Made by a program: the position numbers and the translations under genes. A stretch of 64,000 bases of DNA, taken from assembly GCA_002069725.1 (NCBI GenBank), contig MWBW01000010.1, forward strand, positions 1,046 to 65,045. The letters run 5' to 3'. Below, piece after piece: positions 9,390 to 60,803 of the stretch; positions within the stretch are counted from its first letter, which is position 1; each line of letters opens with the position of its first letter. The notes below the pieces were generated by a model. It made no database searches, was not told the DNA's origin, and was given only the letters and a program-made list of their open reading frames with translations. Source of the DNA: Firmicutes bacterium ADurb.Bin248 (GTDB lineage Bacteria > Bacillota > Clostridia > Christensenellales > CAG-138).

Positions 9390-9426
9390 GTACGTATCCT
9401 TTCCTTTCGTGGGTGAGCTTTTCAGG

Positions 9427-9999
9427 TCATGCCTGATCGTTTGGGTTTCCTGCGTCCGCGGCGCCCTCGTCCGCGCCGGTTTTGCGCGTGAATTCACCCT
9501 GCGCTTCCTCCTCCTCGTCAAAGACGAACGCCGCGCGCAGGGGATCGCCCTTGCTGGCCCCGCGGCGTTCCTGATCCTGCCGCTTGCGCGCTTCCTCCAT
9601 GGCCTTGCGGTCGGTAAGCACGGCGTTGACCACGATCAGCGCGAGAAGCGCCACGAGGCCGACCGCCCAGAGCACGGTGTTGATGACGCCGTATTCTTCG
9701 AGCGTCAGCGCGAGGTAGGTCGTGCCCGAGAGGTACTCGAAGGCGCTGTTGGCGAGGATGACGAGCGCTGCGAACGCGCAGATGAGCCGCATCAAAAGCC
9801 GGTAGGTCTCGGGTTTGCACTTGGGGAACTGGTTGTCGATGAGCTTGCCTTTTCCGCGTATGGCGCCCGCGAGCAGGTACACCGCGATGACCACCTTGAA
9901 AAGCACCATCACGAGGCCCGGGTTACCGGTTGCGGCCGCCGGCTCGGACGACGTTGCCGCGTCGTCCATCAGGAGCGTTGCGAATCTCAGGTATTCCAT
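9427..9999 (-). CDS. Hypothetical integral membrane protein (about 3 TM segments, acidic C-terminal tail)
   Basis: 190-aa ORF with hydrophobic stretches VMVLFKVVIAVYLLAGAI, LICAFAALVILANSAF and VLWAVGLVALLALIVVNAVL. It is 37 bp upstream of, and co-directional with, the SH3b-sortase gene. Confidence 0.5.
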   Translation of the reverse strand: MEYLRFATLLMDDAATSSEPAAATGNPGLVMVLFKVVIAVYLLAGAIRGKGKLIDNQFPKCKPETYRLLMRLICAFAALVILANSAFEYLSGTTYLALTLEEYGVINTVLWAVGLVALLALIVVNAVLTDRKAMEEARKRQDQERRGASKGDPLRAAFVFDEEEEAQGEFTRKTGADEGAADAGNPNDQA

Positions 10000-22130: not shown

Positions 22131-22158
22131 CAAGGGAATGTGGTAGAATAGACGAGGG

Positions 22159-22295
22159 GCAATTGATAATTGACAATTGGCAATGGACAATTGTCAATCA
22201 GGGAACGCCGCCGCGGGCGGGAACGGGACGCTTGAGAATTGACAATGGACAATGGACAATTGACAATCGGGGGAACGCCGCCGCGGGCGGGATTG
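22159..22295 (+). repeat. Heptad-array + GC-hairpin composite repeat, array B (2 units)
   Basis: GCAATTGATAATTGACAATTGGCAATGGACAATTGTCAATCAGGGAACGCCGCC-GCG-GGCGGGAACGGGACGCTTGAG, then AATTGACAATGGACAATGGACAATTGACAATCGGGGGAACGCCGCC-GCG-GGCGGGATTGCAGGG. Lies between divergent metG and the methyltransferase gene. Confidence 0.9.
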
Positions 22296-22340
22296 CAGGG
22301 ACGGCCCGCCGACGGATAAAACCCCGCGCCGAGGATTGAT

Positions 22341-26785: not shown

Positions 26786-26861
26786 GCGCCCATAGCTCAG
26801 CGGATAGAGTGCCCGGCTACGAACCGGTAGGTCGCAGGTTCAAATCCTGCTGGGCGCGCCA
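26786..26861 (+). tRNA. tRNA-Arg (anticodon ACG)
   Basis: Hand-folded cloverleaf. Acceptor GCGCCCA/TGGGCGC. D arm GCTC-AGCGGATA-GAGT. Anticodon arm CCCGG-CTACGAA-CCGGT. T arm GCAGG-TTCAAAT-CCTGC. Discriminator G plus an encoded CCA. Confidence 0.9.
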
Positions 26862-28271: not shown

Positions 28272-28391
28272 ATCGCGTAGAACGCACTTAGAATCGGAGG
28301 ACGGAACGGGCAGCCGTCGCCCTTGTTAGGGGATGCGGGAACTGTCGCCCCGCCTGATTCTTAAACGCAGAACAGACGCTTCGGCGCCCGT

Positions 28392-30988: not shown

Positions 30989-31434
30989 GTTTTCCGTCCT
31001 TTCTTTTCGCGAGGCGGCGCGCCGGGACCGGCCTATGCCTCTCAACTGCCCGAAAACGAAGAAAAAGCTCTCGTTTCGGCAACTGGCTGCCATGCGCTTT
31101 CGCGTTTAGGCCCTCTAGCTTTGCGGCCCCGCCTTTGGACGGGTGTGCCGGTTCGTCGGGATCTTCCGAACGGATATTCGATTCCGGCAACATTATAATT
31201 ACATCTACATAATATTGTCAAGTATAAAATTGTAACCGGGACGAAACGCGCCGTTTCCTGCCGAAAGCGCAGCCCCTGCGGCCGCGGCGCGGTTGCTCCG
31301 AGGTTGCGCGAGGGATGAAGCAAGGCGTCATGCGGCGCAACATTCGGCACAGGCCGTGCAATTCCACGCATTTCCGGAGGCGGAAGCCCAATTAGTTTAC
31401 AGAATATAGAAAAAAGGCGTCGAAAACGGCCTTT

Positions 31435-34500: not shown

Positions 34501-37500
34501 GCGAGTCCGCGCCGCTCGCGCAGAGCGACTTCTCCTTCGTATCCGAAGAGACGGTCCCCAGCGGCACGCCCGGCGTGGGCGCTGTGCACAAGGTCTACTA
34601 TAAGCTGGCCATTACCGGCACGCTGAACAAGCTGACCTGCCAGAAGGACCTCTACAACGTGACTTACACCGGCGACAAGGCCGGGGCCACCACCTGGCCC
34701 AACGACGTCGCCAACGCCGCGAGCGCGCCTTCCCTCGCCGCGGACGCGACGCGGAACGGCTATACCTTCAGCGGCTGGAAGATCAACGGCAGCTCCGTCG
34801 GCTCCATCAACTGGAGCGCGAGCTACGTCACCGTCGCGAGCCGCGAATACTACGATCCGACGCTCGGAAAGTTCGTCACGGAGACCACGCGCTCGGTCAC
34901 GGTGGTCGGCACCTTCACCAAGTGCGCGGACATCGAGCAGAAATATTACACCGTCGTCTACAAGATCGACCTCAACCTCGACGGCGTCGCCGAGGAAGTC
35001 GCCATGCCCGGCTACACCGTGAACAACGTCACCCCGATGCCCACGGGCGTCGCGGGCGCGCCCTCCGGCATCCCCGCCGGATACAGCTTCATCGGATGGA
35101 GCGAATCCGCGCCGCTCGCGCAGAGCGACTTTTCCTTCGTATCCGAGGAGACGGTCCCCAGCGGTACGCCCGGCGTGGGCGCGGTGCGCAAGGTCTACTA
35201 TAAGCTCGCCGTCACCGGCACGCTGAACAAGCTGACCTGCCAGACGACGCTCTACAACGTGACCTACACCGGCGACAAGGCCGGGGCCACCACCTGGCCC
35301 AACGACGTCGCCAACGCCACGAGCGCGCCCTCCCTCGCCGCGGACGCGACGCGGAACGGCTACACCTTCAGCGGCTGGAAGATCGGCGGCAGCCCCATCG
35401 GCTCCATCAACTGGAACGCGAGCTACGTCACCGTCACGAGCCGCGAGTACTACGACGTTTCTCTCGGCAAATTCGTCACGGAGACCACGCGCTCGGTCAC
35501 GGTGGTCGGCACCTTCACCAAGTGCGCCGACATCGAGAAGGAATACTACACCGTCGTTTACCGGATCGACCTCAACCGGGACGGCGTCGACGAGATCGTC
35601 AACATGATGGGCTACAGCGTCAGCGAAGTCGAAACCATGCCCACGGGCGTGGCGGGTTCGCCCATCATCCCCAACGGCTATACCTTCGGCGGGTGGGACA
35701 AGGACGCGCCTCTGGCGAAGGGCGACTTCACCGTTGAGCGCCAGGGAACGACCCCGAGCACGCAGCCCGGCGTGGGCGCGGTGCACAGCGTGTATTATAC
35801 GCTCACCATCAAAGGCACGCTGGACAAGCAGACCCTTGCCAAGACCGTCTACACCGTTCTTTACACCGGCGAGAAAGCCGGAGCGACCACCTGGCCCAGC
35901 GACGTGGTCGACGCCGAGACCCCGCCGACCCTCGCCGCAGACGCGACGAAGAACGGCTATACCTTCAACGGCTGGAAGATCAACGGCAACTCCGCCGGCT
36001 CGCTCAACTGGAGCGCGGGCTACGTCGTGAGCACGACCGACGCGGAGTACTACGACGCGGGCCTCAAGAAGTTCGTGACGGTGACGCACAAGACCATCAC
36101 GGTCACGGGCGCGTTCACCAAGTGCGAGGACGTCGAGGAGAAATACTTCTCCGTCACCTATAAGATCGACCTCAACGGCGACGGCGACTATGCCGACGAG
36201 AACGAGACCGTCAACGCCTACGTCGAGGCATCCCCCATGCCCACCGCGGTCAGCGCCGAGCTCGCGCTCGACGGTTATACCTTCGCGGGCTGGTTCAAGC
36301 AGGGCACGGACACGAAGCTCACCGCGCTCGCCTTCACGGATTACACTTTCGACCGGACGGTGACCGTACCCGGCGGCGTGGGCACGCCCAAGACCATCAA
36401 GAACTACTACGTCATCACGCTGACGGGCACGCTGAGCAAGCAAACGCTCGCCAAGACCGACTACTCGGTGACCTACACGGGCGACAAGGCCGGCGCGACC
36501 TTCTGGCCGGCGGACGTCGTGCGGGCCGCGAGCGCGCCCTCCATCGCCGCAGACGCGACGAAGAACGGCTATACCTTCAGCGGCTGGAGCCCCGCCTCGC
36601 TCGACTGGAACGCGGGCTACGTCGACGTGCAGACCGATTCCGAGTATTATGATGCGAGCCTCAAGAAGTTCGTGACGGTGACGCACAAGACCATCACGGT
36701 CACGGGCGCGTTCGTCAAGTGCGAGGACGTCGAGGAGAAGTATTTCTCCGTCACCTACGAGATCGACCTCAACGGCGACGGCGACTATGCCGACGCGGGC
36801 GAAACCGATCCCGCATACGTCGAGACGTTCCCCATGCCTGCCTCCGTCAGGCCGGACGTTTCCAAGGACGGCTATACCTTCCACGGCTGGTATAAGAAGG
36901 GCACGTCGGAGAAGCTCAGCGCGCTCGCCTTCGCGAACTACGATTACGTGCGCACCGTCACCGTGCCGGCAGGCGCGGGCACGCCGCAGATCACCAAGCA
37001 CTATTACGCCGTCACGCTCAGGGGTTCGCTCGTCAAGAGAGTCTGCCAGCAGACCTATTACAGCGTGAGCTACACCGGCGACAAGGAAGGCGCCGCCACC
37101 TGGCCCAACGACGTTGTGAACGCAGCGAGCGCCCCGTCCCTCGCCGCCGACGCGACGAAGAACGGCTTCGACTTCACCGGCTGGAAGATCAACGGCAGCC
37201 CGGTATCCTCGCTCAACTGGTATGCGAGCTACGTGACGGTGACGAGCCTGCCCGAGGAATACGACCCCGAGAGCGGCATGTTCATCACGAAGATCCACCG
37301 CTCCATCACCGTCGAGGGCCGCTTCGTCAAGTGTCCGGATATCGAGCAGGCCTTCTACTCGGTCATTTATAAGATCGACCTCAATCTGGACGGCGTCGCC
37401 GAAGAGGTCAACATGCTCGGCTACACCGTCACGAACGTCACCAAGATGCCCACGGGCGTCGCGGGCTCGCCCGACATCCCCGCCGGCTACAGCTTCAACG

Positions 37501-40460
37501 GGTGGGATCAGGCGCCGCCGCTCGAACTGGGCGATTTCTCCGTGACCTCCGAGGGCACGACGCCCAGCACGCTGCCCGGCGTGGGCGCGATCCACACGGT
37601 GCATTACCTGTGCAGCATCAAGGGCGCCATGACCAAGAACGAGCTGAACGTGGATGTGTACACCGCGCGCTATAACGTGCGCAACGACACCGCCGCGACG
37701 GTCGGCACGTACGACGCGGAGCAGACGGGCTCGGCCCCGCTGAGCGCGCAGGCGCTGCCCTCCGTGACGAAGGGCTACTCGATCCACGGCTGGTACGTGC
37801 AGCTCGACGAGAGCAACACGCCTTACGGCGGGGGCGACGCGCTCCCCTGGGGCTTTGCGAGCGTCAGCGTCGATGAAAAGCTCGAGAAGCACGGCAGCGC
37901 CTGGTACTGGGTGACCTACCACTACTATGCGCTCGGCCTTTCCGCGGTTGTCAGCGAGAACGAGCACGGCCGGGCGGAAGAATACAACCTCAGCTACAGC
38001 ATCGCGGGCGGCCCGTACACCGATCCGACCAGCGGCGCCGCGCTCAGCGCAAGCGGCATACCCGGCGACGTCTTTGCCTCGCCGACCATGCCCGCGCTCG
38101 GAGGCAATCCCTCGATGAAGGGTCACTCGTTCCAAGGCTGGATGCAGGGCGGCGCCGCGATCGGCTCGAGCGCGGACATCGACTGGACCCAAACCACGCG
38201 GCAGGACTACGACGAAGCAAACGACCGCATCATCGACGTGACCATCTATACCGCTGCGGTTTCGGGCGGCTTTACGATGAACCAGGGCGAGCGGACGAGC
38301 TACAACCTCGCCTACTCCTTCGCCAACGAGCCTTATCAGACGCCCGACGGCCTGAACCTCACCATCGGCAACAGGCCGGCCGACGTGAACGGCGCTTCAA
38401 CCCCGCCCGCCCTCGCGGGCGCGCCCTCGGCGCAGGGCCATACCTTCACCGGCTGGACGCAGAACGGCGCCGCCGTGAGCGACGCGACGCTCGCCTGGGG
38501 CAGCGCGGCCGTCAGCTACGAATACGACGCGGACAACGACAGATTCGTTCGGGTCTCGACCTACAGCGCGGCGGTCGTCGGCGACTTCACGCGCAACACC
38601 GGCGAGGAAACCCTGTATAACCTGACTTACACCATCGACGGCGAGCCGTATACGGACCCCGAGGGCAGGACGCTCAGCATAGGCAACCTCCCCGCGAACG
38701 TGAACGACTCCACGACCCGGCCGGGCCTCGCGGGCGCGCCGACGCTCGACGGCCACTCCTTCTCGGGCTGGAAGCAGGCGGGCAATCCCGTGGACGACGC
38801 GAGCCTCGACTTCGGCACGCCGGGCGTCGGCTACCGCTACGACGAAGCAGGCGACCGCTACGTCATGGTCTACAACTACTCCGCGGCCGTCTCCGGCTCC
38901 TTCACGCTCAACGAGATCGTCGAGAAGGAGATCTGGAACCTCACCTACACCGGCGACAAGGATCTCGCCGACCCGGGCACTTGGCCCGACGACCTCACCA
39001 ACCAGGCCAGCGAGCCCGCGCTGACCGGCCTGACGCCGGCCAAACGCGGCTACACCTTCGGCGGCTGGAAGCAGGGCGGCGCGTCCGTGACGGACATCGC
39101 CTGGTCCGCGACGCTGAGCTACGCGCTGGGCGCGGGCAACCGCTTCGTAAAGACCACCACGTATGAGGCGGCCATCGAAGGCAGGCTCACCATGAAGGGC
39201 GGCGTCGACGAGTATGTCTACATCGTGGACTACACCGTGCACGGCGGCTCGAACGATTACAGCCACCTCGACGTCAACGTCACGAATCCTCCCGCGCTCC
39301 CGACCATCGAACCCGAGCCCAGCGAGAGCGGCAAGGTGTTCGGCGGCTGGAACCCCGGTTCGCTCGACTGGGACGGCACCCCGGCCGTGCCGGGTGAACC
39401 GCGCTTCGACGAGACGCTCGACAAGTGGGTCACGCCCTACACCAAGAAGATCGACGTCACGGGCAGCTTCGGAGAGGTCGGGCATGTGTACGTCTACGAG
39501 CTGAGCTTCACCGGCCCCTCCGGCGCGACGTTGCCCGGCATGAAGAGCGGCACCTCCGTGCAGACCATAGAGGGCGAGACCGCCTCGCTCGACGGCCAGC
39601 GCTTCACGGGCTGGAGCCCCTCGAGCATCGGCGAGAGCGACTACACGGAGAACGAATCCCGCAAGACCGTTTCGGGCGACGGCCTGACCGTTACGCATTA
39701 CATGGAGGCCAGCACGCAGGCGCAGTTCGTCCCGACGGAAGGCCGCGAGCACTATACGCTGCATTATGAGATCGTGGGCAGCGTGCCCGGCCAGCCCGCC
39801 AACCCGCCGGACGAGACGGGCACAAGCCCCATCACGCCCAGCGCGCCGGTGAGCCTCGAGGGCTACAACTTCTCCGGCTGGTCCACCCCGGCGTGGGGCG
39901 TCGTGAACGTCACCAGCGAGATCGTCGACGGCGTCGATGTTTCCACGACCTGGTACGAAGCCACGGTCATCGGCTCCTTCACCGACATGCAGATCGTCGA
40001 GGACATCCGCTATTCGCTGCTCTATCAGGGCTACGTCAGCGGCGTCACCAACTGGCCCGGCGACGTGATCGACTCGACCATACCGCCCGCGCTCTCGGGC
40101 AGCCCGTACCTGTCCGGCTATCAGTTCAACGGCTGGGCGCCCGGTACGCTCGACTGGTCGAAGGCGAGCGCCAGCGTCGGCACGCAGGTCGTCACGCCCG
40201 AGGGGGGCGCGCCCTACATACTCAGGACCACGACCTACACGCTGATCGTCACGGCCAGCTTCTCGGGCTACTACCCGCCGCCGACGTCCTATCCCACGTA
40301 CGGCCCCGTGCCCACGCCGACCAAGCCGCCTCTGGGCACGCCGCAAACTGGCAACACCGGCCTGATCATCTTCTTCGCGGTGTTCTCGCTGATCACGGTC
40401 ATCTTCACGGCGAGCCTGTTCATCCGCAAGAAGATGCGCGCCATCGAGGAAGAGGATTGA
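31545..40460 (+). CDS. Giant (2971 aa) cell-surface protein built of InlB B-repeat / Listeria-Bacteroides-repeat modules with a C-terminal xPQTG sorting signal
   Basis: RBS GAGGGGG. Signal peptide MMKRIGLAKLLALAMTLVMVFSAVSPALA. Dozens of (P)x(K/R)xGY(T/S)FxGW motifs. The C-terminus is PLGTPQTGNTGLIIFFAVFSLITVIFTASLFIRKKMR. Confidence 0.9.
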   Translation: MMKRIGLAKLLALAMTLVMVFSAVSPALACDISQTTIYYYRTAAESAYASYDVAAGTGTSTTVKHTLKSAPTRNGYTFTGFNVYVGSKTGTLIKSNAAPGTSVSIPLTRTSTGKSWPTIHVVAQWRSNCVTYDVIFKTVLVDGKGGQIGKTGSTLGYADIEYLNKQPDTTFPAIPVTDPDPGYVFLGWYTYNGATYTKVTSFPTKIDKDYTFYARWEAKPYVERSVYTLHYIGKPSDTTGVVWPADVEKQASPVTTLGVASKVGATFNGWKLNGTGANRTTLAASDYTKSTAAPVITYDAATDSFIRTTEYIANVHGAFVALEDVIEKYFSVTYKIDLNGDGDYADAGETTLAFVDAPVMPTAVNADVSVPGYTFAGWYKNGSAPKLTTLAFSNYDLDASRTQTIPAGPGTAKRIKNYYSITLVGTLTKKTCQKNLYNVTYTGDKAGATTWPNDVANATSAPSLAADATKNGYTFNGWKIGGSSVGSINWSASYVTVASREYYDPALGKFVTETTRSVTVVGTFTKCADIEQKYYTVVYKIDLNLDGVAEEVAMPGYTVNNVTPMPTGVAGAPSGIPAGYSFIGWSESAPLAQSDFSFVSEETVPSGTPGVGAVHKVYYKLAITGTLNKLTCQKDLYNVTYTGDKAGATTWPNDVANAASAPSLAADATRNGYTFSGWKINGSSVGSINWSASYVTVASREYYDPTLGKFVTETTRSVTVVGTFTKCADIEQKYYTVVYKIDLNLDGVAEEVAMPGYTVNNVTPMPTGVAGAPSGIPAGYSFIGWSESAPLTQSDFSFVSEETVPSGTPGVGAVHKVYYKLAITGTLNKLTCQTTLYNVTYIGDKAGATTWPNDVANAASAPSLAADATRNGYTFSGWKIGGSPVGSISWNASYVTVTSREYYDVSLGRFVTETTRSVTVVGTFTKCADIEQKYYTVVYKIDLNLDGVAEEVAMPGYTVNNVTPMPTGVAGAPSGIPAGYSFIGWSESAPLAQSDFSFVSEETVPSGTPGVGAVHKVYYKLAITGTLNKLTCQKDLYNVTYTGDKAGATTWPNDVANAASAPSLAADATRNGYTFSGWKINGSSVGSINWSASYVTVASREYYDPTLGKFVTETTRSVTVVGTFTKCADIEQKYYTVVYKIDLNLDGVAEEVAMPGYTVNNVTPMPTGVAGAPSGIPAGYSFIGWSESAPLAQSDFSFVSEETVPSGTPGVGAVRKVYYKLAVTGTLNKLTCQTTLYNVTYTGDKAGATTWPNDVANATSAPSLAADATRNGYTFSGWKIGGSPIGSINWNASYVTVTSREYYDVSLGKFVTETTRSVTVVGTFTKCADIEKEYYTVVYRIDLNRDGVDEIVNMMGYSVSEVETMPTGVAGSPIIPNGYTFGGWDKDAPLAKGDFTVERQGTTPSTQPGVGAVHSVYYTLTIKGTLDKQTLAKTVYTVLYTGEKAGATTWPSDVVDAETPPTLAADATKNGYTFNGWKINGNSAGSLNWSAGYVVSTTDAEYYDAGLKKFVTVTHKTITVTGAFTKCEDVEEKYFSVTYKIDLNGDGDYADENETVNAYVEASPMPTAVSAELALDGYTFAGWFKQGTDTKLTALAFTDYTFDRTVTVPGGVGTPKTIKNYYVITLTGTLSKQTLAKTDYSVTYTGDKAGATFWPADVVRAASAPSIAADATKNGYTFSGWSPASLDWNAGYVDVQTDSEYYDASLKKFVTVTHKTITVTGAFVKCEDVEEKYFSVTYEIDLNGDGDYADAGETDPAYVETFPMPASVRPDVSKDGYTFHGWYKKGTSEKLSALAFANYDYVRTVTVPAGAGTPQITKHYYAVTLRGSLVKRVCQQTYYSVSYTGDKEGAATWPNDVVNAASAPSLAADATKNGFDFTGWKINGSPVSSLNWYASYVTVTSLPEEYDPESGMFITKIHRSITVEGRFVKCPDIEQAFYSVIYKIDLNLDGVAEEVNMLGYTVTNVTKMPTGVAGSPDIPAGYSFNGWDQAPPLELGDFSVTSEGTTPSTLPGVGAIHTVHYLCSIKGAMTKNELNVDVYTARYNVRNDTAATVGTYDAEQTGSAPLSAQALPSVTKGYSIHGWYVQLDESNTPYGGGDALPWGFASVSVDEKLEKHGSAWYWVTYHYYALGLSAVVSENEHGRAEEYNLSYSIAGGPYTDPTSGAALSASGIPGDVFASPTMPALGGNPSMKGHSFQGWMQGGAAIGSSADIDWTQTTRQDYDEANDRIIDVTIYTAAVSGGFTMNQGERTSYNLAYSFANEPYQTPDGLNLTIGNRPADVNGASTPPALAGAPSAQGHTFTGWTQNGAAVSDATLAWGSAAVSYEYDADNDRFVRVSTYSAAVVGDFTRNTGEETLYNLTYTIDGEPYTDPEGRTLSIGNLPANVNDSTTRPGLAGAPTLDGHSFSGWKQAGNPVDDASLDFGTPGVGYRYDEAGDRYVMVYNYSAAVSGSFTLNEIVEKEIWNLTYTGDKDLADPGTWPDDLTNQASEPALTGLTPAKRGYTFGGWKQGGASVTDIAWSATLSYALGAGNRFVKTTTYEAAIEGRLTMKGGVDEYVYIVDYTVHGGSNDYSHLDVNVTNPPALPTIEPEPSESGKVFGGWNPGSLDWDGTPAVPGEPRFDETLDKWVTPYTKKIDVTGSFGEVGHVYVYELSFTGPSGATLPGMKSGTSVQTIEGETASLDGQRFTGWSPSSIGESDYTENESRKTVSGDGLTVTHYMEASTQAQFVPTEGREHYTLHYEIVGSVPGQPANPPDETGTSPITPSAPVSLEGYNFSGWSTPAWGVVNVTSEIVDGVDVSTTWYEATVIGSFTDMQIVEDIRYSLLYQGYVSGVTNWPGDVIDSTIPPALSGSPYLSGYQFNGWAPGTLDWSKASASVGTQVVTPEGGAPYILRTTTYTLIVTASFSGYYPPPTSYPTYGPVPTPTKPPLGTPQTGNTGLIIFFAVFSLITVIFTASLFIRKKMRAIEEED
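32838..35837 (+). repeat. Five in-frame ~600-bp tandem copies (200-aa double B-repeat supermodule) inside the giant gene
   Basis: The C-Q-(K/T)-x-LYNVTY(T/I)GDKAGATTWPNDVANA module restarts at 32838, 33438, 34038, 34638 and 35238. More diverged copies follow at about 35838, 36447 and 37043. Segment 33072-33904 is base-for-base identical to 34272-35104. Confidence 0.95.
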
Positions 40461-41875: not shown

Positions 41876-41920
41876 CGAAGAGGCCGATCCCATATCGGCC
41901 TCTTCGAAGAATGTTTTTTG
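41876..41920 (+). terminator. Rho-independent terminator after the small B-repeat gene
   Basis: CGAAGAGGCCGAT-CCCAT-ATCGGCCTCTTCG followed by AAGAATGTTTTTT. Confidence 0.75.
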
Positions 41921-42014
41921 GAAAAAGTATAGCGGGCGGAAAGTCCGCCGCTGCGACGGCCCGAAACGGCCTTCGTTCTTAGCGAAGGCCGCTCGAATCA
42001 AATTCAATTGTCCA

Positions 42015-43001
42015 TTACTCCGTTTTCTCCCCCGGATACCACAACCCCCAGCTATGCCGTATGCCGTCCATCAGCTCCATGATGCGGATGGTCTCCGCGT
42101 GCGGCATGTCGGGACACTCGGACGCGCCCGAGAGTATGGCCTCGGTTATGGCGCGCACCTCGTATTCGTAGCCCGTGACCTGCGGCGGCCGCTCGACGCG
42201 CTCGATGAGATTGTAATCATCGTCGTAGGCGCGAAGGGACTCGAAGTTGTTGATGTTCTCTACGAGCGCGTAGCCCTTTTCTCCGTAGATGACGCCCAGG
42301 CGGTCCGTCGTGCCGAGCACGGAATAGAGGAGCGTCGCCATGCGCCCGTCCGAGTAGGTCAGGGCGATGGAGCCCTGCGTATCCACGCCAAGCTCGTTCT
42401 TGACGGCCGAACTCGTGAAGCCCGTGACCTCGCCGCCCAGTACGAGGGCCGCGAAGTTGAGCGTGTAGACGCCGACGTCCAGCAGCGCGCCGCCCGCGAG
42501 CTCCGGCTCCCTCAGGCGCGGCACGCCGGCTACCGGGTAGCCGAGGTTGCAGTATACCGCGTACACGCGCCCGATTCTGTCGCTCGCGCAGAAATCGCGG
42601 ATGGTTTTGGCCATGGGCATGTAGCGCGGCCAGATCGCCTCCGCGACGACGCGCTTCTTCTCGCGCGCGCGGGCGAGAACCTCTCTCGCCTGCTTCGCCG
42701 TGACGGTGAACGCCTTCTCGCACAGTATGTGCTTGCCCGCATCGAGGCAGGCGAGCATCTGTTCGGCGTGGCGGGAATGCGGCGATGCGACATACACGAC
42801 GTCCACGTCCGGGTCGGCGAGCAGTTCCGCGTCCGAGCCGTACGCTTTTCGTATGCCGTAGCGCGCGGCGAAGGCCTTCGCCCGCGCCGTTTCGCGCGAG
42901 GCGACGGCGTAAAGGTTTGCGTCGCCGGAGCGCGCGAGGGTATCCGCCATTTCGTTGGCGATCCAGCCCGTGCCGAGTATCCCGAAGTTCAGTTTTTTCA
43001 T
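42015..43001 (-). CDS. Gfo/Idh/MocA-family NAD(P)-dependent oxidoreductase
   Basis: 328 aa. MKKLNFGILGTGWIANEMADTL Rossmann N-terminus and HILCEKAF motif. Confidence 0.85.
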   Translation of the reverse strand: MKKLNFGILGTGWIANEMADTLARSGDANLYAVASRETARAKAFAARYGIRKAYGSDAELLADPDVDVVYVASPHSRHAEQMLACLDAGKHILCEKAFTVTAKQAREVLARAREKKRVVAEAIWPRYMPMAKTIRDFCASDRIGRVYAVYCNLGYPVAGVPRLREPELAGGALLDVGVYTLNFAALVLGGEVTGFTSSAVKNELGVDTQGSIALTYSDGRMATLLYSVLGTTDRLGVIYGEKGYALVENINNFESLRAYDDDYNLIERVERPPQVTGYEYEVRAITEAILSGASECPDMPHAETIRIMELMDGIRHSWGLWYPGEKTE

Positions 43002-48645: not shown

Positions 48646-50102
48646 GCGCGCCCGCCCTCCTCCTCGCCGAATATGCGCCCGCTCACGAGGTATGAGCCGC
48701 CGCCCGATTTCGTGATTTCCGTTTCCGGCACGCCCAGTTCCTCCGCGAGTATCTCCATGACCCGCGTGAGGCAGAAGCCGCTCTGGCAGCGCCCCATGCC
48801 CGCCCGCGCGCGGAACTTGACCCCGTCCACGCTGCGCGCGCCGACCGGCCTTCGGATGCATTCGCGTATTTCCGCTTCGCTCACGTTCTCGCAGCGGCAG
48901 ACGATTTTGGCGTAATCCGGGTTTTTCGCGATGGCCGCCGCGCGCTCGTCCGCGTCCATCGTGCGAAACGCGGGTATGGCTTTTCGCACCGGGTCGAACG
49001 CGGGGTTTTCCGCCGCGCGAAGCCGCTGCGCGACGCTCTCGGCGAGGTATACCGCGATCGCGGGCGCGGCAGTGAGCCCCGGCGACTCGATGCCCGCCGC
49101 GTTGAAAAAGAGCGGCGCGTCCCCGGGTTCGCCGAGCACGAAATCATCCTTATCGCAGTGCGCGCGTATGCCCGAAAACGTCGTGATGAAGCCGCGGCGC
49201 GGGATATCCTCCCAGGTGAGCGCGGCGCGCTCGAGCACTTTCGCGAGGCCCCCGGCCGTGGTGGACTTATCCTCCCGGTCGGGAATATCCTCGGCCGTCG
49301 GGCCGAGCAATATCGTATCCTCCACCGTGCGCGCGACGAGCACGCCCTTGCCCATGGCGGTCGGAAGCTGAAAGATCGCGCTTTTGAACAGCTTTCCGTA
49401 GCTCTTGTCGACGATGTGGTATTCGCCGCGGCGCGGCGTGATGCCGATCCTCTCCGCGCTCACGCGGTTGTTGATTTCGTCCGCATGGACGCCCGCGCAG
49501 TTGACCACGGCGCGCGCGGCGCACTCCCGCCCGCCCGCGCGCACGAGATAGCCGCCCCTGCCGTCGCGCCGCACATCCGTAACGGGCGCTTCGCGGAAGA
49601 CCGCCGCGCCGTTTTTAACGGCGTTCTCGGCATAGGCGAAGGTCAGCTCGTACGGGCTGACGATGCCGCCCGAGGGCGCAAACAGCGCGGCGACCGCCTT
49701 CGCGCTCACGTTCGGCTCCAGGTTGCGCAGTTCCTCCGCGCGGATCACGCGGAGCCCTTTTACGCCGTTGGCCACGCCGCGCCAGACGAGCTTCTCGAGC
49801 TCCGGGATGCCCTCGTCCGAAAACGCGAGCACGATTGAGCCGTTGCGCTCGAAGTGCACGTCCAACTCCCGCGCGAGCGTATCGAACATGGCGTTGCCGA
49901 TGACGTTGAAGCGCGCCTTGTCGGTGCCGGGCTTGGCGTCGAAGCCCGCGTGGACGATGGCGGTGTTGGCCTTGCTCTGGCCGGAGCAGATGTCCGGCGC
50001 GCCTTCGAAAAGCGCGACGCGAAGCTTATAGCGCGTCAGCTCCCTTGCCGTGGCGCAGCCCACCACGCCGCCGCCGATGATTACGACATCGTATTTCTGC
50101 AT
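48642..50102 (-). CDS. FAD-dependent glycerol-3-phosphate dehydrogenase/oxidase-like protein with C-terminal BFD-like [2Fe-2S] motif
   Basis: Start at ATG 50102 (MQKYDVVIIGGGVVGCATAREL). C-terminal IVCRCENVSEAEIRECI...GMGRCQSGFC. Confidence 0.8.
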   Translation of the reverse strand: MQKYDVVIIGGGVVGCATARELTRYKLRVALFEGAPDICSGQSKANTAIVHAGFDAKPGTDKARFNVIGNAMFDTLARELDVHFERNGSIVLAFSDEGIPELEKLVWRGVANGVKGLRVIRAEELRNLEPNVSAKAVAALFAPSGGIVSPYELTFAYAENAVKNGAAVFREAPVTDVRRDGRGGYLVRAGGRECAARAVVNCAGVHADEINNRVSAERIGITPRRGEYHIVDKSYGKLFKSAIFQLPTAMGKGVLVARTVEDTILLGPTAEDIPDREDKSTTAGGLAKVLERAALTWEDIPRRGFITTFSGIRAHCDKDDFVLGEPGDAPLFFNAAGIESPGLTAAPAIAVYLAESVAQRLRAAENPAFDPVRKAIPAFRTMDADERAAAIAKNPDYAKIVCRCENVSEAEIRECIRRPVGARSVDGVKFRARAGMGRCQSGFCLTRVMEILAEELGVPETEITKSGGGSYLVSGRIFGEEEGGRA

Positions 50103-50118
50103 CCAAAAGTTCCCCTTT

Positions 50119-50192
50119 GGGCAATTGACAATTGACAATTGACAATTGACAATTAAATTTATCCGCAGGGGCCGATTCCATATCGGCCCGCG
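50119..50192 (+). repeat. Heptad block C (5 x CAATTGA) plus a different hairpin, between glpK and the GlpA-like gene
   Basis: GGGCAATTGACAATTGACAATTGACAATTGACAATTAAATTTATCCGCAGGGGCCGAT-TCCAT-ATCGGCCC. The heptads are antisense relative to the operon. Confidence 0.85.
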
Positions 50193-50197
50193 CCGTC

Positions 50198-51691
50198 TTA
50201 TTCCTCGCCCCACGCCCGCGCCGAGCGGACCGCCTTCTTCCATCCAGCGAGCTTCTCCGCGCGCGCGGCCTCGTCCATGTTCGGCTCGAACCGGTCCGGT
50301 TCGGGCACGCGGCGGCCAAGCTCCTCGCGGTCCTTCCAGAAGCCGCAGGCGAGCCCCGCGAGGTACGCGGCGCCCAGCGCGGTCGTCTCGACGCATTGCG
50401 GGCGCAGCACCGGCGCGTCGATGACGTCCGCCTGGAACTGCATGAGCAAATCGTTCGCGCTCGCGCCGCCGTCGGCCTTGAGCGCGGCGAGGCGTATGCC
50501 CGAATCCTCCTGCATGGCGCGCAGCACGTCGCTGGTCTGATACGCGAGGGATTCGAGCGTCGCGCGCACGATGTGGCTTTTGTTGACGCCGCGCGTGACG
50601 CCCACGATCGCCCCGCGCGCGTAGGGGTCCCAGTACGGCGCGCCGAGGCCGACGAACGCGGGCACGACGTAGCAGCCGTTCGTGTCCGGAACCTCGCGGG
50701 CGAGCTTCTCGCTCTCGGCGGCGGAGGAGATCAGGCGCACCTCGTCGCGCAGCCACTGTATGGCCGCGCCCGCGATGAAAACCGAGCCCTCGAGCGCGTA
50801 CTCGACCTTTCCCGCGTAGCCCCACGCGATGGTCGTGATCAGGCCGTTCGCGCTCGCGACCGGCGCGCCGCCCGTGTTCATCAGCAGGAAGCACCCCGTG
50901 CCGTAGGTGTTCTTCGCCTCGCCCGGCGAAAAGCACCTCTGCCCGAACAGCGCCGCCTGCTGGTCGCCCGCCGCGCCGCAGATGGGGATGGCCGCGCCGA
51001 AATGCGCGGGGTCTGTTTGGGCGAAGACATGGCTCGAGGGAAGCGCTTTGGGCAACATTTCCCGGGGAATGTCGAACTCCGCGAGGATCTCGTCGTCCCA
51101 GTCGAGCGTGTGGATGTTGAACAGCAGCGTGCGCGAGGCGTTGGAGTAGTCCGTCACGTGCGCGCGGCCGCCCGTGAGTTTATAGATGAGCCATGTGTCC
51201 ACCGTGCCGAACAGAAGCTCGCCGCGCTTCGCGCGCGCTCTCGCGTCGGGAACGTTGTCGAGTATCCACTTGAGCTTGGTGCCGGAAAAATACGCGTCGA
51301 TCATCAGGCCGGTCTTGTCGCGGAACCATTCCGCGAGGCCGCGCGCCTTGAGCGAATCGCAATATTTGGCCGTGCGGCGGCACTGCCAGACGATGGCGCG
51401 GCACACAGGCTCGCCCGTGCGCTTATCCCACACGACGGTCGTTTCGCGCTGATTCGCGATGCCGATGGCCGCGATGTCCCCGGCGGCCGCGTCCACGCGC
51501 GCCATGGCCTCGCGCGCCGCGCCAAGCTGAGCCGCCCAGATTCCCATCGCGTCGTGCTCGACCCAGCCGGGCCGCGGGTAGATCTGCGGGAACTCGTTCT
51601 GCGCGCTGCTTTCGACATGGCCGTTCGCGTTGAAGAGCATCGCACGGCTGCTGGTCGTGCTCGCGTCCAAAGCCATGACGTATTTCGCCAT
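50198..51691 (-). CDS. glpK: Glycerol kinase
   Basis: Start at ATG 51691 ([21 protein letters not shown]...[17 protein letters not shown]). RETTVVWDK and [11 protein letters not shown] motifs. Confidence 0.95.
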
Positions 51692-51780
51692 AAAACCCTC
51701 CGATATCGGGCGGATATAGAATCCGCCCCTGCTGCGCCCGTCGGAATCCGTCCTGCGAAATCCCGTCGCGGCGCGGTTTT

Positions 51781-52130
51781 TAATTGTCAATGATCCCGTC
51801 CCGCCCGCGGCGGCGTTCTTTGATTGTCAATTATCAATTGTCAATTGTCAATTATCAATTATCAATGATCCCATCCCGCCCGCAGGCGGCGTTCCCCGAT
51901 TGTCAATTGTCAATTATCAATTATCAATTATCCCATCCCGCCCGCGGCGGCGTTCCCCGATTGTCAATTGTCAATTATCAATTATCAATTATCCCGTCCC
52001 GCCCGCGGCGGCGTTCCCCGATTGTCAATTGTCAATTGTCAATTATCAATTATCAATTATCCCATCCCGCCCGCAGGCGGCGTTCCCCGATTGTCAATTG
52101 TCAATTGTCAATTGTCAATTATCAATTGCC
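51781..52130 (-). repeat. Heptad-array + GC-hairpin composite repeat, array D (5 units; largest)
   Basis: Five CCC(G/A)TCCCGCCCGC(A)GGCGGCGTTC hairpin cores centred near 51808, 51883, 51945, 52006 and 52074 (spacings 75, 62, 61, 68 bp). They are separated by CAATTGT/CAATTAT heptad runs. This is the reverse complement of arrays A and B, so it is co-oriented with glgA. Confidence 0.92.
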
Positions 52131-53574
52131 CATACAGCTCCTCGTAGTCCTTTGCGCGTTCGTCCCACGAGAAGTTCTCCCGCATCGCGCGCGCGACGAG
52201 CCGCGCCCAGAGCGCGGGGTCGTCGCAAAAGTAATCGACGGCGCGCTGCACGGTGTAGAGAAGCTCGTGCGCGTTGTAGTTCAGGAACGAGAAACCCGTG
52301 CCCGTATCCTCGTATCGATTATAGGATTTGACGCTGTCCCTGAGGCCGCCGGTTTCGCGCACGACCGGGATCGTGCCGTAGCGCATGGCGATCATCTGCG
52401 CGAGGCCGCAGGGTTCGAACAGCGAGGGCATCAGGAACAGGTCCGCGCCCGCGTAGATGCGCCGCGCGAGGCCCTCGTTGTATTCGATGCGCGCGGCGGC
52501 GCGCCCGGGGAAGCGCTTCTGCACCCAGTTGAAGAAGCCCTCGTAATGCGCCTCCCCCGTGCCGAGCACGGCGAGCTGCACGGGCTTTTCCATCATTTCG
52601 AACAGCACGCGCTCGACGAGGTCGAAGCCCTTCTGCGAGGTCAGGCGGGAAACGATGGCGAGGATGGGCGCGCCCGGGTCTTCCCCGAGTCCGAGCTCCT
52701 TTTGAAGCGCGGCCTTGCATAGAGCCTTTCCCGCCATGTCGTCGACGGAAAAGTTCGCGGGAAGCGCCTTGTCCACCGCGGGATCGAACTCCCTGGTGTC
52801 GATGCCGTTGAGTATGCCCGTGAGCCTGCCCGCGCGCGCGCGCAGGATGCCGTCGAGCGTTTCGCCGAAGAAGCTGGTCTGTATCTCCGAGGCGTAGGTC
52901 GGGCTCACGGTATTGATGGCGTCGGCAAAGGCGAGGCCGCCCTTCATGTAGCTGACGCACCCGCAGTATTCAAGCGCGTTGGGGTCGAACGCGATGGGGC
53001 CGAGGGTGAGCAGCTCGTCCGTGAAGCCGCGGTCGAACACGCCCTGGAAGCGCAGGTTGTGGATCGTGAAAAGCGACCTGACCCGCGCGTATTCGGGTAT
53101 GTGCGCGTACTGCGTCTTGAGGAGCGCCGCGGCCATGCCCGTCTGCCAGTCGTTGAGGTGCAATACGTCGGGATAGAAATCGAGCCGCGCCATGAGTTCG
53201 ACGAGCGCCTTTGAGAAAAAGCCGAAGCGCTCGGCCTCGTCGCAGTTGAACACGCCGTAGATGTTGTCCCGTCCGAAGTAGAACTCGTTGTCCACGAAAT
53301 AGTAGGCGACGCCGTCGCGCGCCATGCCCTCCACGCCGAGGAACTGCTCGCGCCAGCCCAGGCGGATGTTGCCGTCGTAGAGGTGGACGAGCTCCTCGCC
53401 GTACGCGCGGCGGATCTGCTTATACAAAGGCAGCGCGACGCGCACGTCGTAGCCGCGCCTTGCGAGCGCTGCGGGCAGCGCGCCCGCGACATCCGCGAGG
53501 CCGCCGGTTTTGACGAAGGGCGCGCACTCGCTGGCTGCGAAGAGTATGCTCGGCTTTTTCGCGGTTTGGCTCAT
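52108..53574 (-). CDS. glgA: Glycogen synthase (ADP-glucose type)
   Basis: 488 aa. ILFAASECAPFVKTGGLADVAGALP N-terminus and EPCGLAQMIAMRYGTIPVVRETGGLRDS. The last codons (..GQLIIDN*) and the TGA lie inside the heptad repeat. Confidence 0.95.
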   Translation of the reverse strand: MSQTAKKPSILFAASECAPFVKTGGLADVAGALPAALARRGYDVRVALPLYKQIRRAYGEELVHLYDGNIRLGWREQFLGVEGMARDGVAYYFVDNEFYFGRDNIYGVFNCDEAERFGFFSKALVELMARLDFYPDVLHLNDWQTGMAAALLKTQYAHIPEYARVRSLFTIHNLRFQGVFDRGFTDELLTLGPIAFDPNALEYCGCVSYMKGGLAFADAINTVSPTYASEIQTSFFGETLDGILRARAGRLTGILNGIDTREFDPAVDKALPANFSVDDMAGKALCKAALQKELGLGEDPGAPILAIVSRLTSQKGFDLVERVLFEMMEKPVQLAVLGTGEAHYEGFFNWVQKRFPGRAAARIEYNEGLARRIYAGADLFLMPSLFEPCGLAQMIAMRYGTIPVVRETGGLRDSVKSYNRYEDTGTGFSFLNYNAHELLYTVQRAVDYFCDDPALWARLVARAMRENFSWDERAKDYEELYGQLIIDN

Positions 53575-59099: not shown

Positions 59100-60803
59100 T
59101 CAGTTGCTGAAGCCCGTAATGCCCAGCGGCGTCGCCATGTCGCAGTCGACCACGAAGCAGGGGCCGGAGCCGTCGCCCCACGGGTCCTGGAGATAGGCGA
59201 GCCACTGCTCGTCGTCGAAATAGCGCACGAAGCTGTCCCAGTCGCTCTCGCCGTCGAAGGGGAGCATCGTGGTTTCGATAAGCCAGTAATCCCCGCTCTG
59301 GTTCCAGTCCTCGACGGCGACCTGCGCGTGCCCCGGCGGCAGTATGATCATGGCGTGCATGTTGGCGCTCTGTATGGCGCTGGCCATAATCAGGGCGGTT
59401 TCGATGCAAACGCCGCTGCCCGCGTAGAGGCTGGCGTCCGGCAGCAGCACGCGCTGGTTCGCGCCCTCGGTCATGGAGAACGCGCCCATGTTGTAGCGCA
59501 TGCCCAGCTCGCTCATGGCGGCCTGTACGCCGATCACCTGCCAGATGACGTTGAGATAATATTCATCCTCGCCGAAAAGCGCGAGCTGGTAGCCCGGCAG
59601 GGAATTGAGCTGCCCGTCGGTGTAATACTCCAGCCACGAGATCGCGGTGCGGCGCAGCGTCAGTATCCCCTCGGACTCCGGCGTGAGCCACGCGAGCAGG
59701 TCGTAGTCGCTGTACACGCCGAACTCGTCGCTCCAGAGGCAGAAGTCGTATATGCTCATCAGCTTGACCTTGCGCGATTCCCGCGCGTAGACCTTGCCCG
59801 TGTTCACGTCGGACACGGCGATGCTGATCTGCGCGTCCTTGGAGGAGGTCAGATCGATGTTGCCGGGGAGCAGCGCGGGCTTGGCGTAGATCTTGGTGAT
59901 TTGGGAACTGAGCGTCACTTTCTGCTCGTACGGCTGCGTGAAGCCGGGGATCTCCACGCGAACGAGCACCTCCGTGTCGCCCCCCTCGCTCGTGGCGGTG
60001 AGGTTGACCACGCTGTCCATCGTGGAGTAAAGGTTGGGATAGATGGTCTCGCACGTGACGAAATCCACCTCGACCGAGTTTTCCCTGGCGGCGTAGGAAT
60101 AGGATATGCCGGGCAGATCCGCGTCGGAAAGCACTTTGTCCGCGAGCGAGCCCGACGGCGTGTTGAGCGCCTCGCCCCCCTTGCCGCCCGTGTTCCGCTT
60201 ATCGCCCGGGGAGAGCGCGAGCACGAGCACCACGGCGAGCACCGCGACGCCCACGAGTATGCCGCCGATGATAAACCCCGTTTTCGCGCCTTTGCCGCCT
60301 TTTTTGGCGGGCGGCGGCGCGCCGTATTGATATGCCGGAGCCTGATACGCGCCGGGCTGCTGCGGCGGCGCCTGATACGGGGACGCGGGCGGCGCGGGCC
60401 GGTACGCGGGGGCCTGCGGCGCGGCGGGCGCCTGGTACGCCGGGGCCTGCGGCGGCGCCTGATATGCGCCGGTTTGCGGCGCGGCGGGGGCCCGGTACGC
60501 CGGCGCCTGATACGCGCCGGGTTGCGGCGCGGCGGGGGTCTGATACGCCGGGGCCTGCGGCGGCGCCTGATACGCGCCGGTTTGCGGCGCGGCGGGGGCC
60601 CGATACGTCGGGCCCTGCGGCGGCGCCTGATATGCGCCTGCTTGCGGCGCGGCGGGCTGGGACGGAAAAACGGGCTGCGCGGCGGGCGCCTGCGCGGCCC
60701 CGCCCGCGGGAACGCGCCCCGCGTCGGCGGCGTTGCCGCACGAGGGACAGAAGGCTTCGCCCTCCCTGATCGGGGAGCCGCAGTTTACGCAAAATTTCGC
60801 CAT
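59100..60803 (-). CDS. Zinc-ribbon / P-A-Q-Y repeat linker / single TM / extracellular transglutaminase-like-core protein
   Basis: 567 aa. MAKFCVNCGSPIREGEAFCPSCG. About 140 aa of (GAYQAPPQAPAYQAPAAPQ)-like repeats. TM segment FIIGGILVGVAVLAVVLVLAL. C-terminal GSGVCIETALIMASAIQSANMHAMIILPPGHAQVAVE...YWLIETT follows a Cys-His-Glu pattern like papain-fold transglutaminase-like domains. Confidence 0.65.
   Translation of the reverse strand: MAKFCVNCGSPIREGEAFCPSCGNAADAGRVPAGGAAQAPAAQPVFPSQPAAPQAGAYQAPPQGPTYRAPAAPQTGAYQAPPQAPAYQTPAAPQPGAYQAPAYRAPAAPQTGAYQAPPQAPAYQAPAAPQAPAYRPAPPASPYQAPPQQPGAYQAPAYQYGAPPPAKKGGKGAKTGFIIGGILVGVAVLAVVLVLALSPGDKRNTGGKGGEALNTPSGSLADKVLSDADLPGISYSYAARENSVEVDFVTCETIYPNLYSTMDSVVNLTATSEGGDTEVLVRVEIPGFTQPYEQKVTLSSQITKIYAKPALLPGNIDLTSSKDAQISIAVSDVNTGKVYARESRKVKLMSIYDFCLWSDEFGVYSDYDLLAWLTPESEGILTLRRTAISWLEYYTDGQLNSLPGYQLALFGEDEYYLNVIWQVIGVQAAMSELGMRYNMGAFSMTEGANQRVLLPDASLYAGSGVCIETALIMASAIQSANMHAMIILPPGHAQVAVEDWNQSGDYWLIETTMLPFDGESDWDSFVRYFDDEQWLAYLQDPWGDGSGPCFVVDCDMATPLGITGFSN
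60308..60728 (-). repeat. Imperfect ~48-60-bp tandem DNA repeats encoding the P/A/Q/Y linker
   Basis: Recurrent CCTGATA(C/T)GCGCCGG(T/G)TTGCGGCGCGGCGGGGG(C/T)C... units are visible on the plus strand between about 60330 and 60700. Confidence 0.8.

Follow-up and report, generated by a model that had tools for sequence, protein, structure and literature searches.

A strain-variable array of heptads and GC hairpins supplies the stop codon of glgA and belongs to a gene-boundary repeat family of high-GC Clostridia

Introduction

How does a conserved housekeeping gene come to end inside a repeat, and what does that repeat do between this gene and the next? The question is raised by a locus in a 64-kb stretch of DNA from Firmicutes bacterium ADurb.Bin248 (the window, to which coordinates refer unless a contig is named), in which glgA and glpK, encoding glycogen synthase and glycerol kinase, are separated by array D, a block of tandem hairpins alternating with runs of a seven-nucleotide repeat, the heptad. 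We establish here the anatomy of array D, its membership in a repeat family, the rule of position and orientation that the family follows, the repeat origin of the GlgA tail, the growth of arrays by local duplication and their polymorphism between strains, and we weigh what such an element may do.

Anatomy of array D and the end of GlgA

The nearest named relatives and the gene order glgB-glgC-glgD-glgA at this locus point to an uncultured, Christensenellales-like source within the Clostridia. The locus contains the following features (H1 and H2 denote two hairpin families).

51781–52130, − strand: array D, five tandem units between glgA and glpK, ~350 bp, with a partial sixth heptad run on the glpK side
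51801–51815, + strand: H1 core 1 (CCGCC-CGC-GGCGG), then TTCTTTG; the only terminator-like unit of array D, and on the + strand (antisense to the genes) only
51876–51891, + strand: H1 core 2, loop CGCA, linker TTCCCCG
51938–51952, + strand: H1 core 3, loop CGC, linker TTCCCCG
51999–52013, + strand: H1 core 4, loop CGC, linker TTCCCCG
52067–52082, + strand: H1 core 5, loop CGCA, linker TTCCCCG
52108–53574, − strand: glgA, glycogen synthase, 488 aa (Pfam Glyco_transf_5/Glycos_transf_1 on record for the identical protein; PDB GlgA, E = 2.5e-90)
52108–52128, − strand: heptad-encoded GlgA tail, CAA TTG ATA ATT GAC AAT TGA (QLIIDN-stop)
50198–51691, − strand: glpK, glycerol kinase of the FGGY family, 497 aa, with ribosome-binding site (RBS) GGAGGG
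51692–51780, − strand: unique glpK leader with no sigma-70-like promoter, holding H2 (51708–51728) and a hairpin at 51753–51777

The H1 cores, which match CCGCCCGC(A)GGCGGCG on the + strand, start at 51801, 51876, 51938, 51999 and 52067, at spacings of 75, 62, 61 and 68 bp, where shuffles lead us to expect ~0.4 matches by chance in the whole window. The gaps between them are filled by runs of ATTGTCA and ATTATCA heptads, for which a search for three consecutive copies gives 39 matches against 0.00 expected. Tandem Repeats Finder describes array D as a repeat of period 62 (4.5 copies, 90% match) and the heptad runs as repeats of period 7 with 4.9–6.9 copies per run, that is, as head-to-tail heptanucleotide long simple sequence repeats (LSSRs). 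On the + strand each unit reads TCCC(A/G)T, H1 (CCGCC, loop CGC or CGCA, GGCGG), CGTT and the pyrimidine linker CCCCG, ATTGTCA two to four times and ATTATCA two to three times; in the sense of glgA it is a GATAATT run, two to four GACAATT, AATCGGGGAA, and then the H1 hairpin CGCCGCC(T)GCGGGCGGG. The H1 stem is nearly invariant and its loop variable, and one register-shifted variant retains all 5 bp. Array D has a predicted folding energy of −156 kcal/mol (z = −5.5) in the sense direction, with z = −8.3 antisense; because CAATTG is palindromic, each heptad run is 6/7 complementary to its neighbors, and in the predicted fold these runs pair across each H1 to give long imperfect stems.

No gene is found in 51692–52107 by our codon-usage gene caller, a codon log-odds model trained on Pfam-confirmed genes. 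A coding role for array D is rejected, since it accommodates no gene model and its spacings do not run in multiples of 3, and the + strand open reading frames at 51784–52722, 51900–52331 and 51968–52147 are antisense artefacts. The earlier description of this DNA from its sequence alone (the sequence-only reading), as a non-coding array of five heptad-separated cores at these spacings, is thus borne out by the core search, the heptad search and the gene caller.

The glgA reading frame does enter the array, as that reading had it: the stop codon (52108–52110) lies inside the fifth heptad run, and the 3′ end of the gene, GGG CAA TTG ATA ATT GAC AAT TGA, encodes GQLIIDN-stop, so that the last six codons and the TGA are heptad sequence. 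E. coli GlgA ends in ELYYRLK and the protein here in ELYGQLIIDN, the repeat replacing about three non-conserved residues and adding four. One coordinate changes, the ATG of glpK being at 51691 rather than at 51692.

A position rule for the repeat family

We surveyed 72 distinct arrays in the window and in related high-GC Clostridia (Christensenellales-like) contigs, with genes called by the codon model. A metagenome scan with a pattern of H1, linker and heptad returned 50 loci, ~30 of which (GC 0.61–0.66, mostly from anaerobic digesters) have the H1-plus-heptad cassette. Read as ATTGTCA, nearly all 72 arrays are preceded by a GC hairpin with a pyrimidine linker, some three isolated two-heptad matches having a weak predicted fold only. 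Besides H1, hairpins of other types occur in this place, canonical terminators such as CGGCCTTCGC..GCGAAGGCCG among them. ATTGTCA itself makes up 52% of 380 heptads, with positions 1–3 and 6 conserved at 93–98%.

The arrays are placed by a strict rule. In class I, which holds 50 of the 72, the free end of the heptads lies between −24 and +24 nt from the stop codon of the gene in whose sense they read AATTGAC, and the offsets of −3, −10, −17 and −24 are those at which the heptad TGA supplies the stop. In class II (9/72) the ATTGTCA reading ends 15–42 nt short of a start codon, immediately ahead of the RBS, as in array C, which precedes a glpD-like gene in the window, and at sites upstream of glpK in contigs L128 and L181. 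Directly after a stop codon in the stop-free orientation we find none (0/72). Repeats of AATTGAC/ATAATTG hold TGA or TAA in every frame within 21 nt and repeats of ATTGTCA hold no stop, and the arrays that neighbor a native stop (offset 0 to +24) are still all in the stop-rich orientation. The stop-codon rule holds for the repeat family as a whole and is nothing peculiar to glgA, and the survey agrees with the earlier remark that array D is oriented relative to glgA as array A is relative to mnmE.

The 45 nt beside the heptads fold better in gene sense (mean −15.6 kcal/mol) than antisense (−13.2 kcal/mol), with 51 arrays favoring the former and 21 the latter (Wilcoxon p = 5e-6), and at class I sites the hairpin is followed by a U-rich tail (5 or more T within 8 nt) at 12/50 in gene sense and at 4/50 antisense. 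Because gene-sense folding is better and U-rich tails are mostly in gene sense, the basic arrangement is a stop codon, then heptads, then the gene's own 3′ hairpin. The neighbor on the hairpin side of class I arrays, where one was called (n = 47), is convergent in 22 cases and co-directional in 25, and several arrays lie directly upstream of the convergent gene's own terminator.

Age and amplification of the repeat at glgA

Among contigs that encode an identical GlgA and share >99% DNA identity with the window, array D has five units in L002 and, as far as the contig reaches, in L003, four in L001 and two in L006; a further metagenome contig, L173, has one, with the GlgA tail QLTIDN. Strains therefore differ in array D unit number (5, 4, 2, 1), and heptad numbers also vary among the >99% identical contigs, all counts coming from short-read assemblies. 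L001, with one unit fewer in array D, carries two units of H2 plus heptads between glpK and the glpD-like gene (6316–6511) where the window has one (50103–50197), and this extra, sequence-distinct array C unit beside fewer D units argues that the variation at D is not merely assembly collapse. Units have private features, namely the linker TTCCCCG in array D and TTTTTG with a fixed ATTGTCC heptad in array A; because units are array-specific in this way, it is tandem duplication in place, rather than repeated insertion, that makes arrays grow.

Among relatives with 79–83% identical GlgA, L127, L128 and L181 have heptads at the same place and a tail of LY(G/R)QLTIDN-stop; QLTIDN is the tail of proteins P0003–P0005. 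In L183 and L184 decayed heptad remnants are left, with the tails QLTTDNR and QLTAGD, respectively, and in L185 1.5 heptads run into an H2. No trace of heptads is found at the glgA end in L130, where the tail is ADITES and the glgA–glpK spacer 49 bp long. This comparison of C-termini confirms that the tail is lineage-specific and repeat-derived, intact heptads giving QLTIDN, decayed ones QLTTDNR or QLTAGD and the repeat-free relative ADITES. The repeat at glgA is old, as its presence in several species of this divergence shows, and only the five-fold amplification is recent and strain-variable. The sequence-only reading had suggested that an element inserted or expanded right at the native end of glgA; the location at a gene end stands, but the event is not unique, as the placement is family-wide and only the amplification is recent.

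Other genes in the lineage end in the same way or carry the repeat at the same site. The GlpK of L127 ends in ..WGEEAIDN-stop, its last four codons and stop coming from heptads, and mnmE in a related Christensenellales metagenome-assembled genome (L074) has heptads at the position seen in the window, with a different hairpin. Downstream of glpK in L127 (13090–13450 of JAXGNN010000001, a Christensenellales metagenome-assembled genome) lies a tandem triplication of ~134 bp, whose unit combines ~23 nt from the very end of the glpK coding sequence with a heptad run, H1 and H2. The glgA–glpK spacers of L128 (6275–6500) and L181 (3420–3705) are bracketed by inverted cassettes, with AATTGAC heptads at the glgA stop and ATTGTCA heptads 15–16 nt before the glpK ATG. 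Each of these two spacers is predicted to form one giant hairpin (−81.6 kcal/mol, z = −5.5 in L128; −149 kcal/mol, z = −13.9 in L181) that brings the stop beside the RBS, and such a stem might possibly act as a long-range translational coupling device.

A possible role in the 3′ untranslated region

Repetitive extragenic palindromes (REPs) and the bacterial interspersed mosaic elements (BIMEs) built from them stabilize upstream mRNA and, when very near a stop codon, interfere with terminating ribosomes. We tentatively favor, at a probability of roughly 45%, the reading that array D is a REP/BIME-like composite repeat in the 3′ untranslated region (3′-UTR) and terminator zone, transcribed with glgA and acting as REP/BIME stem-loops do, its all-frame stops allowing it to overlap the gene end. 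Array D is a locally amplified stack of a composite intergenic repeat common in a high-GC Clostridia (Christensenellales-like) lineage, whose module, in the sense of the upstream gene, comprises the stop codon, (A/G)ATAATT/GACAATT heptads, a purine-rich linker and a short GC hairpin, which is either H1 or, elsewhere, an intrinsic terminator belonging to the gene. This module is seated in the 3′-UTR/terminator zone; with a stop in all frames of its heptads it can therefore overlap dispensable last codons and supply the stop itself, which is the origin of the QLIIDN tail.

At the DNA level, replication slippage and unequal recombination between units change array length, giving five units here and four, two or one elsewhere. 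At the RNA level, array D would be transcribed as the glgA 3′-UTR and glgA–glpK intercistronic region, and the long imperfect stem-loops predicted for it, which are without sense U-tracts, would probably act as 3′ exonuclease barriers and weak attenuators rather than as efficient terminators, with glpK read through from the glg operon. No terminator-like site is found on the − (gene-sense) strand within array D; those nearby, unit 1 with its weak U-tract and the 51753–51777 hairpin with its T5 run, are on the + strand only. A stack of efficient sense terminators is accordingly rejected, there being no U-tracts in the sense of glgA.

Several points weigh against this reading. We infer, rather than observe, both transcription through array D and a stabilizing or attenuating effect, and the reading leaves unexplained why one heptad recurs at many loci and in other phyla. 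Point mutations have eroded the heptads at glgA in two related species, and one species has none; the element is therefore dispensable at that site, a finding as compatible with neutrality as with function. Tandem repeats can be collapsed in short-read metagenome assemblies, the source of the unit counts of 2 and 1. The gap between sense and antisense folding could partly reflect base composition (a G-rich sense strand and G-U pairing), and the arrays in the survey lack phylogenetic independence. Because the pattern used to fetch many of the loci required H1 next to heptads, hairpin adjacency is partly built in there; it is not built in for extra arrays at the fetched loci, and gene-boundary adjacency is not built in anywhere.

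Alternative explanations

A serious alternative, though less probable than the reading above, is that the repeat is purely a mutational by-product or selfish DNA that does nothing for the cell: a simple sequence repeat (SSR) prone to slippage and tolerated only in the few selection-free, AT-rich nucleotides by the terminator hairpins of a compact GC-rich genome, and showing an orientation rule only because the opposite orientation would extend proteins. Copy number does vary between near-identical strains, the units are array-specific and locally duplicated, the L127 duplication took in the 3′ end of glpK, and the glgA repeat has decayed in L183 and L184 and is absent in L130; heptanucleotide units are, moreover, the most abundant long SSR class, and the commonest in many bacteria, according to Mrazek 2007 as cited in PMC4679880. 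Slippage does not, however, readily give one heptad consensus (ATTGTCA) at dozens of unrelated loci, always on the same side of the hairpin, nor near-identical arrays at gene boundaries of other phyla. Arrays beside native stops still all keep the stop-rich orientation, and heptads are retained at the orthologous glgA and mnmE sites of ~80% identical species, even next to another hairpin type.

Improbable, in our estimation, is a protein-binding array at the DNA level, in which CAATTG repeated every 7 bp beside GC palindromes would bind a nucleoid or topology protein, or extrude cruciforms, and so mark the ends of transcription units. BIMEs bind IHF and gyrase, the CAATTG core is palindromic, with the conservation at positions 1–3 and 6 given above, the heptad arrays are AT-rich islands at the gene boundaries of a 64% GC genome, and in L128 and L181 a pair of inverted cassettes turns the spacer as a whole into a giant palindrome. 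But no protein is known as a candidate; the seventh base should not matter to a dimer that binds CAATTG, yet orientation to both hairpin and gene is strict; and RNA or translation is the level suggested by the stop-codon logic and by the sense strand's better folding.

We rate as highly unlikely a promoter, or phase-variable promoter, for glpK inside array D, with unit number tuning glpK expression. A promoter scan of 49900–52400 does return 11 promoter-like pairs (matching at 9–10 of 12 positions) against 0.6 expected, nine of them gene-sense in array D and two on the + strand in array C; array D unit number differs between strains; and the scan finds no alternative sigma-70-like pair on the − strand in 51692–51780, in line with the earlier failure to see a convincing −35/−10 pair there. 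All the pairs, however, have the form TTGAYA-N17-GAYAAT (one array C match has N16), the best being TTGATA-N17-GATAAT at 51858–51830 in the unit nearest glpK, and this form is automatic in any run of at least four heptads because 23 = 3×7+2, so that the 7-bp period by itself accounts arithmetically for the excess. The better −10 (GATAAT) lies, in most units, upstream of the stronger −35 (TTGACA), transcripts begun in array D must still pass H1 hairpins, and 22 of 47 class I arrays face a convergent gene, several of them immediately upstream of a sense terminator, where a promoter would be senseless. A general promoter role for the family is not supported, on the same grounds, convergent neighbors and hairpins or terminators lying immediately downstream; a start inside the unit nearest glpK keeps a low probability.

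The glgA–glpK spacers of L130, L183 and L184 are 49–94 bp long with no obvious terminator or promoter, which implies an operon, suggests that glpK was ancestrally co-transcribed with glgA, and makes transcription of glpK by read-through from glgA more likely. Of the routes offered by the sequence-only reading, namely transcription from within or through the array or promoter function of the TTGACA boxes, read-through is hence the more likely, and promoter function of the boxes is not supported, given the 7-bp period and the convergent neighbors.

Comparison with known repeat systems

The closest precedent is the family of TAACTGA direct repeats of marine Beggiatoaceae, also present in some cyanobacteria and Bacteroidetes, which occur in two to six copies at gene boundaries (MacGregor 2015, PMC4679880). 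In the forward orientation these hold stops in all frames, overlap 13 open reading frame ends and encode LITDN-stop; their function was given as unknown and translational regulation was proposed (PMC4679880). The repeats described here are likewise tandem heptads in intergenic, gene-boundary positions with all-frame stops in one orientation, and they likewise overlap the ends of upstream reading frames, as the offsets of −3/−10/−17/−24 and the GlgA QLIIDN and L127 GlpK ..EEAIDN termini attest. They differ by one base (TAATTGA/CAATTGA), so the unit is not exactly the same; the TAACTGA repeats are located for the most part a few nucleotides ahead of start codons, where they have the stop-containing orientation, and are predicted to lack structure; they have no reported association with GC hairpins or composite tandem units, and occur in other phyla with AT-richer genomes. 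In the searchable literature the exact heptad dimer appears only in a lacO primer.

Array D resembles the REP/BIME elements of Enterobacteria and Pseudomonas in consisting of short GC-rich extragenic palindromes, which there stand mostly just after stops within transcription units, and in forming mosaic clusters of strain-variable copy number; it is extragenic, after a stop and one of many copies (at least six sites in 64 kb, with 50/72 arrays abutting stops). H2 has a REP-like GTAG head and an 8-bp stem, and the inverted cassettes of L181 form a giant hairpin like that of a REP doublet forming hairpins (REPIN). H1, on the other hand, is 14–17 nt with a 5-bp stem and has no GTAG/GTGG head, in place of a head plus a 20–40 nt palindrome; the units of array D are all direct rather than alternating inverted, with no inverted repeat across the region (the inverted pairs are in L128 and L181); BIMEs have no counterpart of the AT-rich heptad SSR between the hairpins; and the host belongs to a Clostridia lineage. 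By definition, H1 is not a REP, and array D is neither a terminator nor a miniature inverted-repeat transposable element.

The short tandemly repeated repetitive (STRR) sequences of cyanobacteria are head-to-tail 7-nt intergenic repeats, and the heptad runs share with these and other LSSRs the head-to-tail 7-nt unit, the intergenic location and length polymorphism by slippage. Here, in contrast, the SSR is half of a fixed hairpin cassette with a strict orientation and position relative to stops and RBSs, and the unit of amplification is the whole cassette of 61–75 bp. As at intrinsic terminators, a GC stem-loop lies a few tens of nucleotides after the stop, and canonical U-tract terminators are present at several family sites (7950–8010 in the window; 12/50 class I); in array D, however, the H1s are without a U-tract in the sense of glgA, only unit 1 being weakly terminator-like antisense, and five tandem copies with 20–45 nt heptad runs are not terminator features.

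The remaining candidates are quickly dismissed: an Rfam scan without any match at the gathering score, and with only chance-level matches (E ≥ 0.24) in 49900–52300, gives no known RNA family, the "spacers" of a CRISPR-like array would be heptad runs rather than unique sequence, and no terminal inverted repeats of a miniature transposable element flank array D.

Further hairpin families and other sites in the window

The window carries at least six heptad/hairpin sites. Besides array D these are as follows.

7634–7817, + strand: array A, three units, linker TTTTTG; begins exactly at the TAA of mnmE (6287–7636, +)
7950–8010, − strand: degenerate heptads (GATAATTGAAAATTGGCAATC) plus terminator; overlap the stop of an SH3-domain gene (8007–9521, −)
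22158–22296, − strand: array B, two units, between divergent metG (−) and methyltransferase (+) genes
42007–42020, + strand: two-heptad remnant; overlaps the stop of gene 42015–43001 (−) and adjoins a strong hairpin
50122–50189, − strand: array C, class II arrangement, with 4.7 copies of ATTGTCA at 50122–50155

Array A has, in the sense of mnmE, a U-rich tail after its last hairpin, its TTTTTG linker being on one strand. The 3′ end of the SH3-domain gene runs in the order stop, degenerate heptads (7990–8010), canonical terminator hairpin and U7. Array B ends ~25 nt upstream of the TTGACA −35 box of metG. In gene sense, array C runs from the glpK stop through H2 (50169–50189), TAAATTT and the ATTGTCA heptads to the RBS and ATG of the glpD-like gene. 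A replication-oriented signal is rejected, the AATTGAC reading being on the + strand in arrays A, B and C but on the − strand in array D.

Two further hairpin families accompany the heptads.

H2 sites: window 50169–50189, 51708–51728 and 41881–41901; L127 13150–13450; L181 3480–3640; L132, L135, L144, L145 and L178
H3 sites: L143 ~2560–2650, L166 ~9200–9290, L162 and L175; a fragment in the window at ~7870–7895

H2 has the form GTAG-GGGC(C/G)GAT-N5-ATC(C/G)GCCC, with an 8-bp stem, and is found in both orientations, often 5–10 nt from H1; the copy in the glpK leader reads GGGCGGAT-tctat-ATCCGCCC, and two inverted copies in L181 give a REPIN-like structure. A GTAG head with a GC palindrome is the hallmark of the REP elements recognized by RAYT transposases, and to our knowledge REP/REPIN-like elements have not been described in a Clostridia lineage. 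A glp-specific hairpin of the GlpP antiterminator-target type is rejected for H2, which also occurs at many unrelated loci, as is a CsrA site in its loop, where GGA is not conserved. At 51691–51718 the 3′ arm of H2 and a GATATC palindrome have the glpK Shine-Dalgarno region as a potential alternative pairing partner (arms of 17 nt, 76% complementary), and formation of H2 could therefore free or occlude the RBS. H3 is an inverted repeat, GGGGACGGTTCTG...CAGAACCGTCCCC, of ~70 nt that lies ~25 nt from H1 at several loci.

Elsewhere in the window, three RNAs score above the Rfam gathering score, a c-di-GMP-I riboswitch (31075–31159, −; 67 bits), a skipping-rope RNA (28290–28361, +; 59 bits) and a tRNA (26786–26858, +). 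A single open reading frame of 2971 aa with a very high coding score fills 31545–40460 (+), where GC skew is shifted negative and AT skew positive relative to the surroundings. Within gene 59100–60803 (−), nested tandem repeats of 24–168 nt at 60334–60684 (Tandem Repeats Finder score up to 435) encode a Pro/Ala/Gln/Tyr-rich repeat (..APAYQAPPQ..) that is also present at the start of L173.

Occurrence across phyla and significance

A scan of a genome collection for three heptads returned at least 120 loci (L007–L126) in many phyla, mostly intergenic by inspection of the printed contexts; the matches listed include Prevotella/Bacteroidales, cyanobacteria, Saccharibacteria, Oscillospiraceae and Planctomycetes. 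A rough count over the 184 arrays among the matches listed gives 66 with a stop next to AATTGAC and 23 with a stop next to ATTGTCA. At several Prevotella/Bacteroidales loci, CAATT(G/A)T arrays run right up to a start codon or a TAnnTTTG −7 promoter box, and in high-GC Oscillospiraceae (L072, L118, L026, L090) the heptads follow a GC hairpin, as they do in the window.

A broader and quite speculative idea, to which we give little credence, is that (Y)AAYTGA-type heptad arrays are a cross-phylum punctuation of gene boundaries read by a conserved trans-acting factor (for example a terminator-associated protein, an RNase, or the ribosome or S1). Among its members would be the CAATTGA/TAATTGA heptads described here, the TAACTGA repeats of Beggiatoaceae and the arrays of Prevotella/Bacteroidales, cyanobacteria, Saccharibacteria and Oscillospiraceae. 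Such arrays would set 3′-end formation, mRNA processing or translational coupling, for example through the L128 and L181 stems that would join the glgA stop to the glpK RBS, and the GC-hairpin cassette of Christensenellales would be the most elaborate form of the signal.

For annotation, the last codons and stops of housekeeping genes (glgA, a relative's glpK and others) are routinely supplied by the repeat in this lineage, and C-termini such as QLTIDN are repeat artefacts, not conserved motifs; for assembly, contigs break or collapse at the arrays, as in L003–L005, which end in or at an array. The strict arrangement, either stop, stop-rich heptads and hairpin or hairpin, stop-free heptads and RBS, retained at orthologous sites of different species and with echoes in other phyla, exceeds what slippage alone predicts and joins the unexplained observation of TAACTGA repeats made in 2015, and we regard this position rule and the link to those repeats as the parts most worth attention. 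If a reader of the heptad exists, the arrays would constitute a new post-transcriptional or boundary signal; if there is none, they would be a clean natural example of an all-frame-stop repeat colonizing gene ends.

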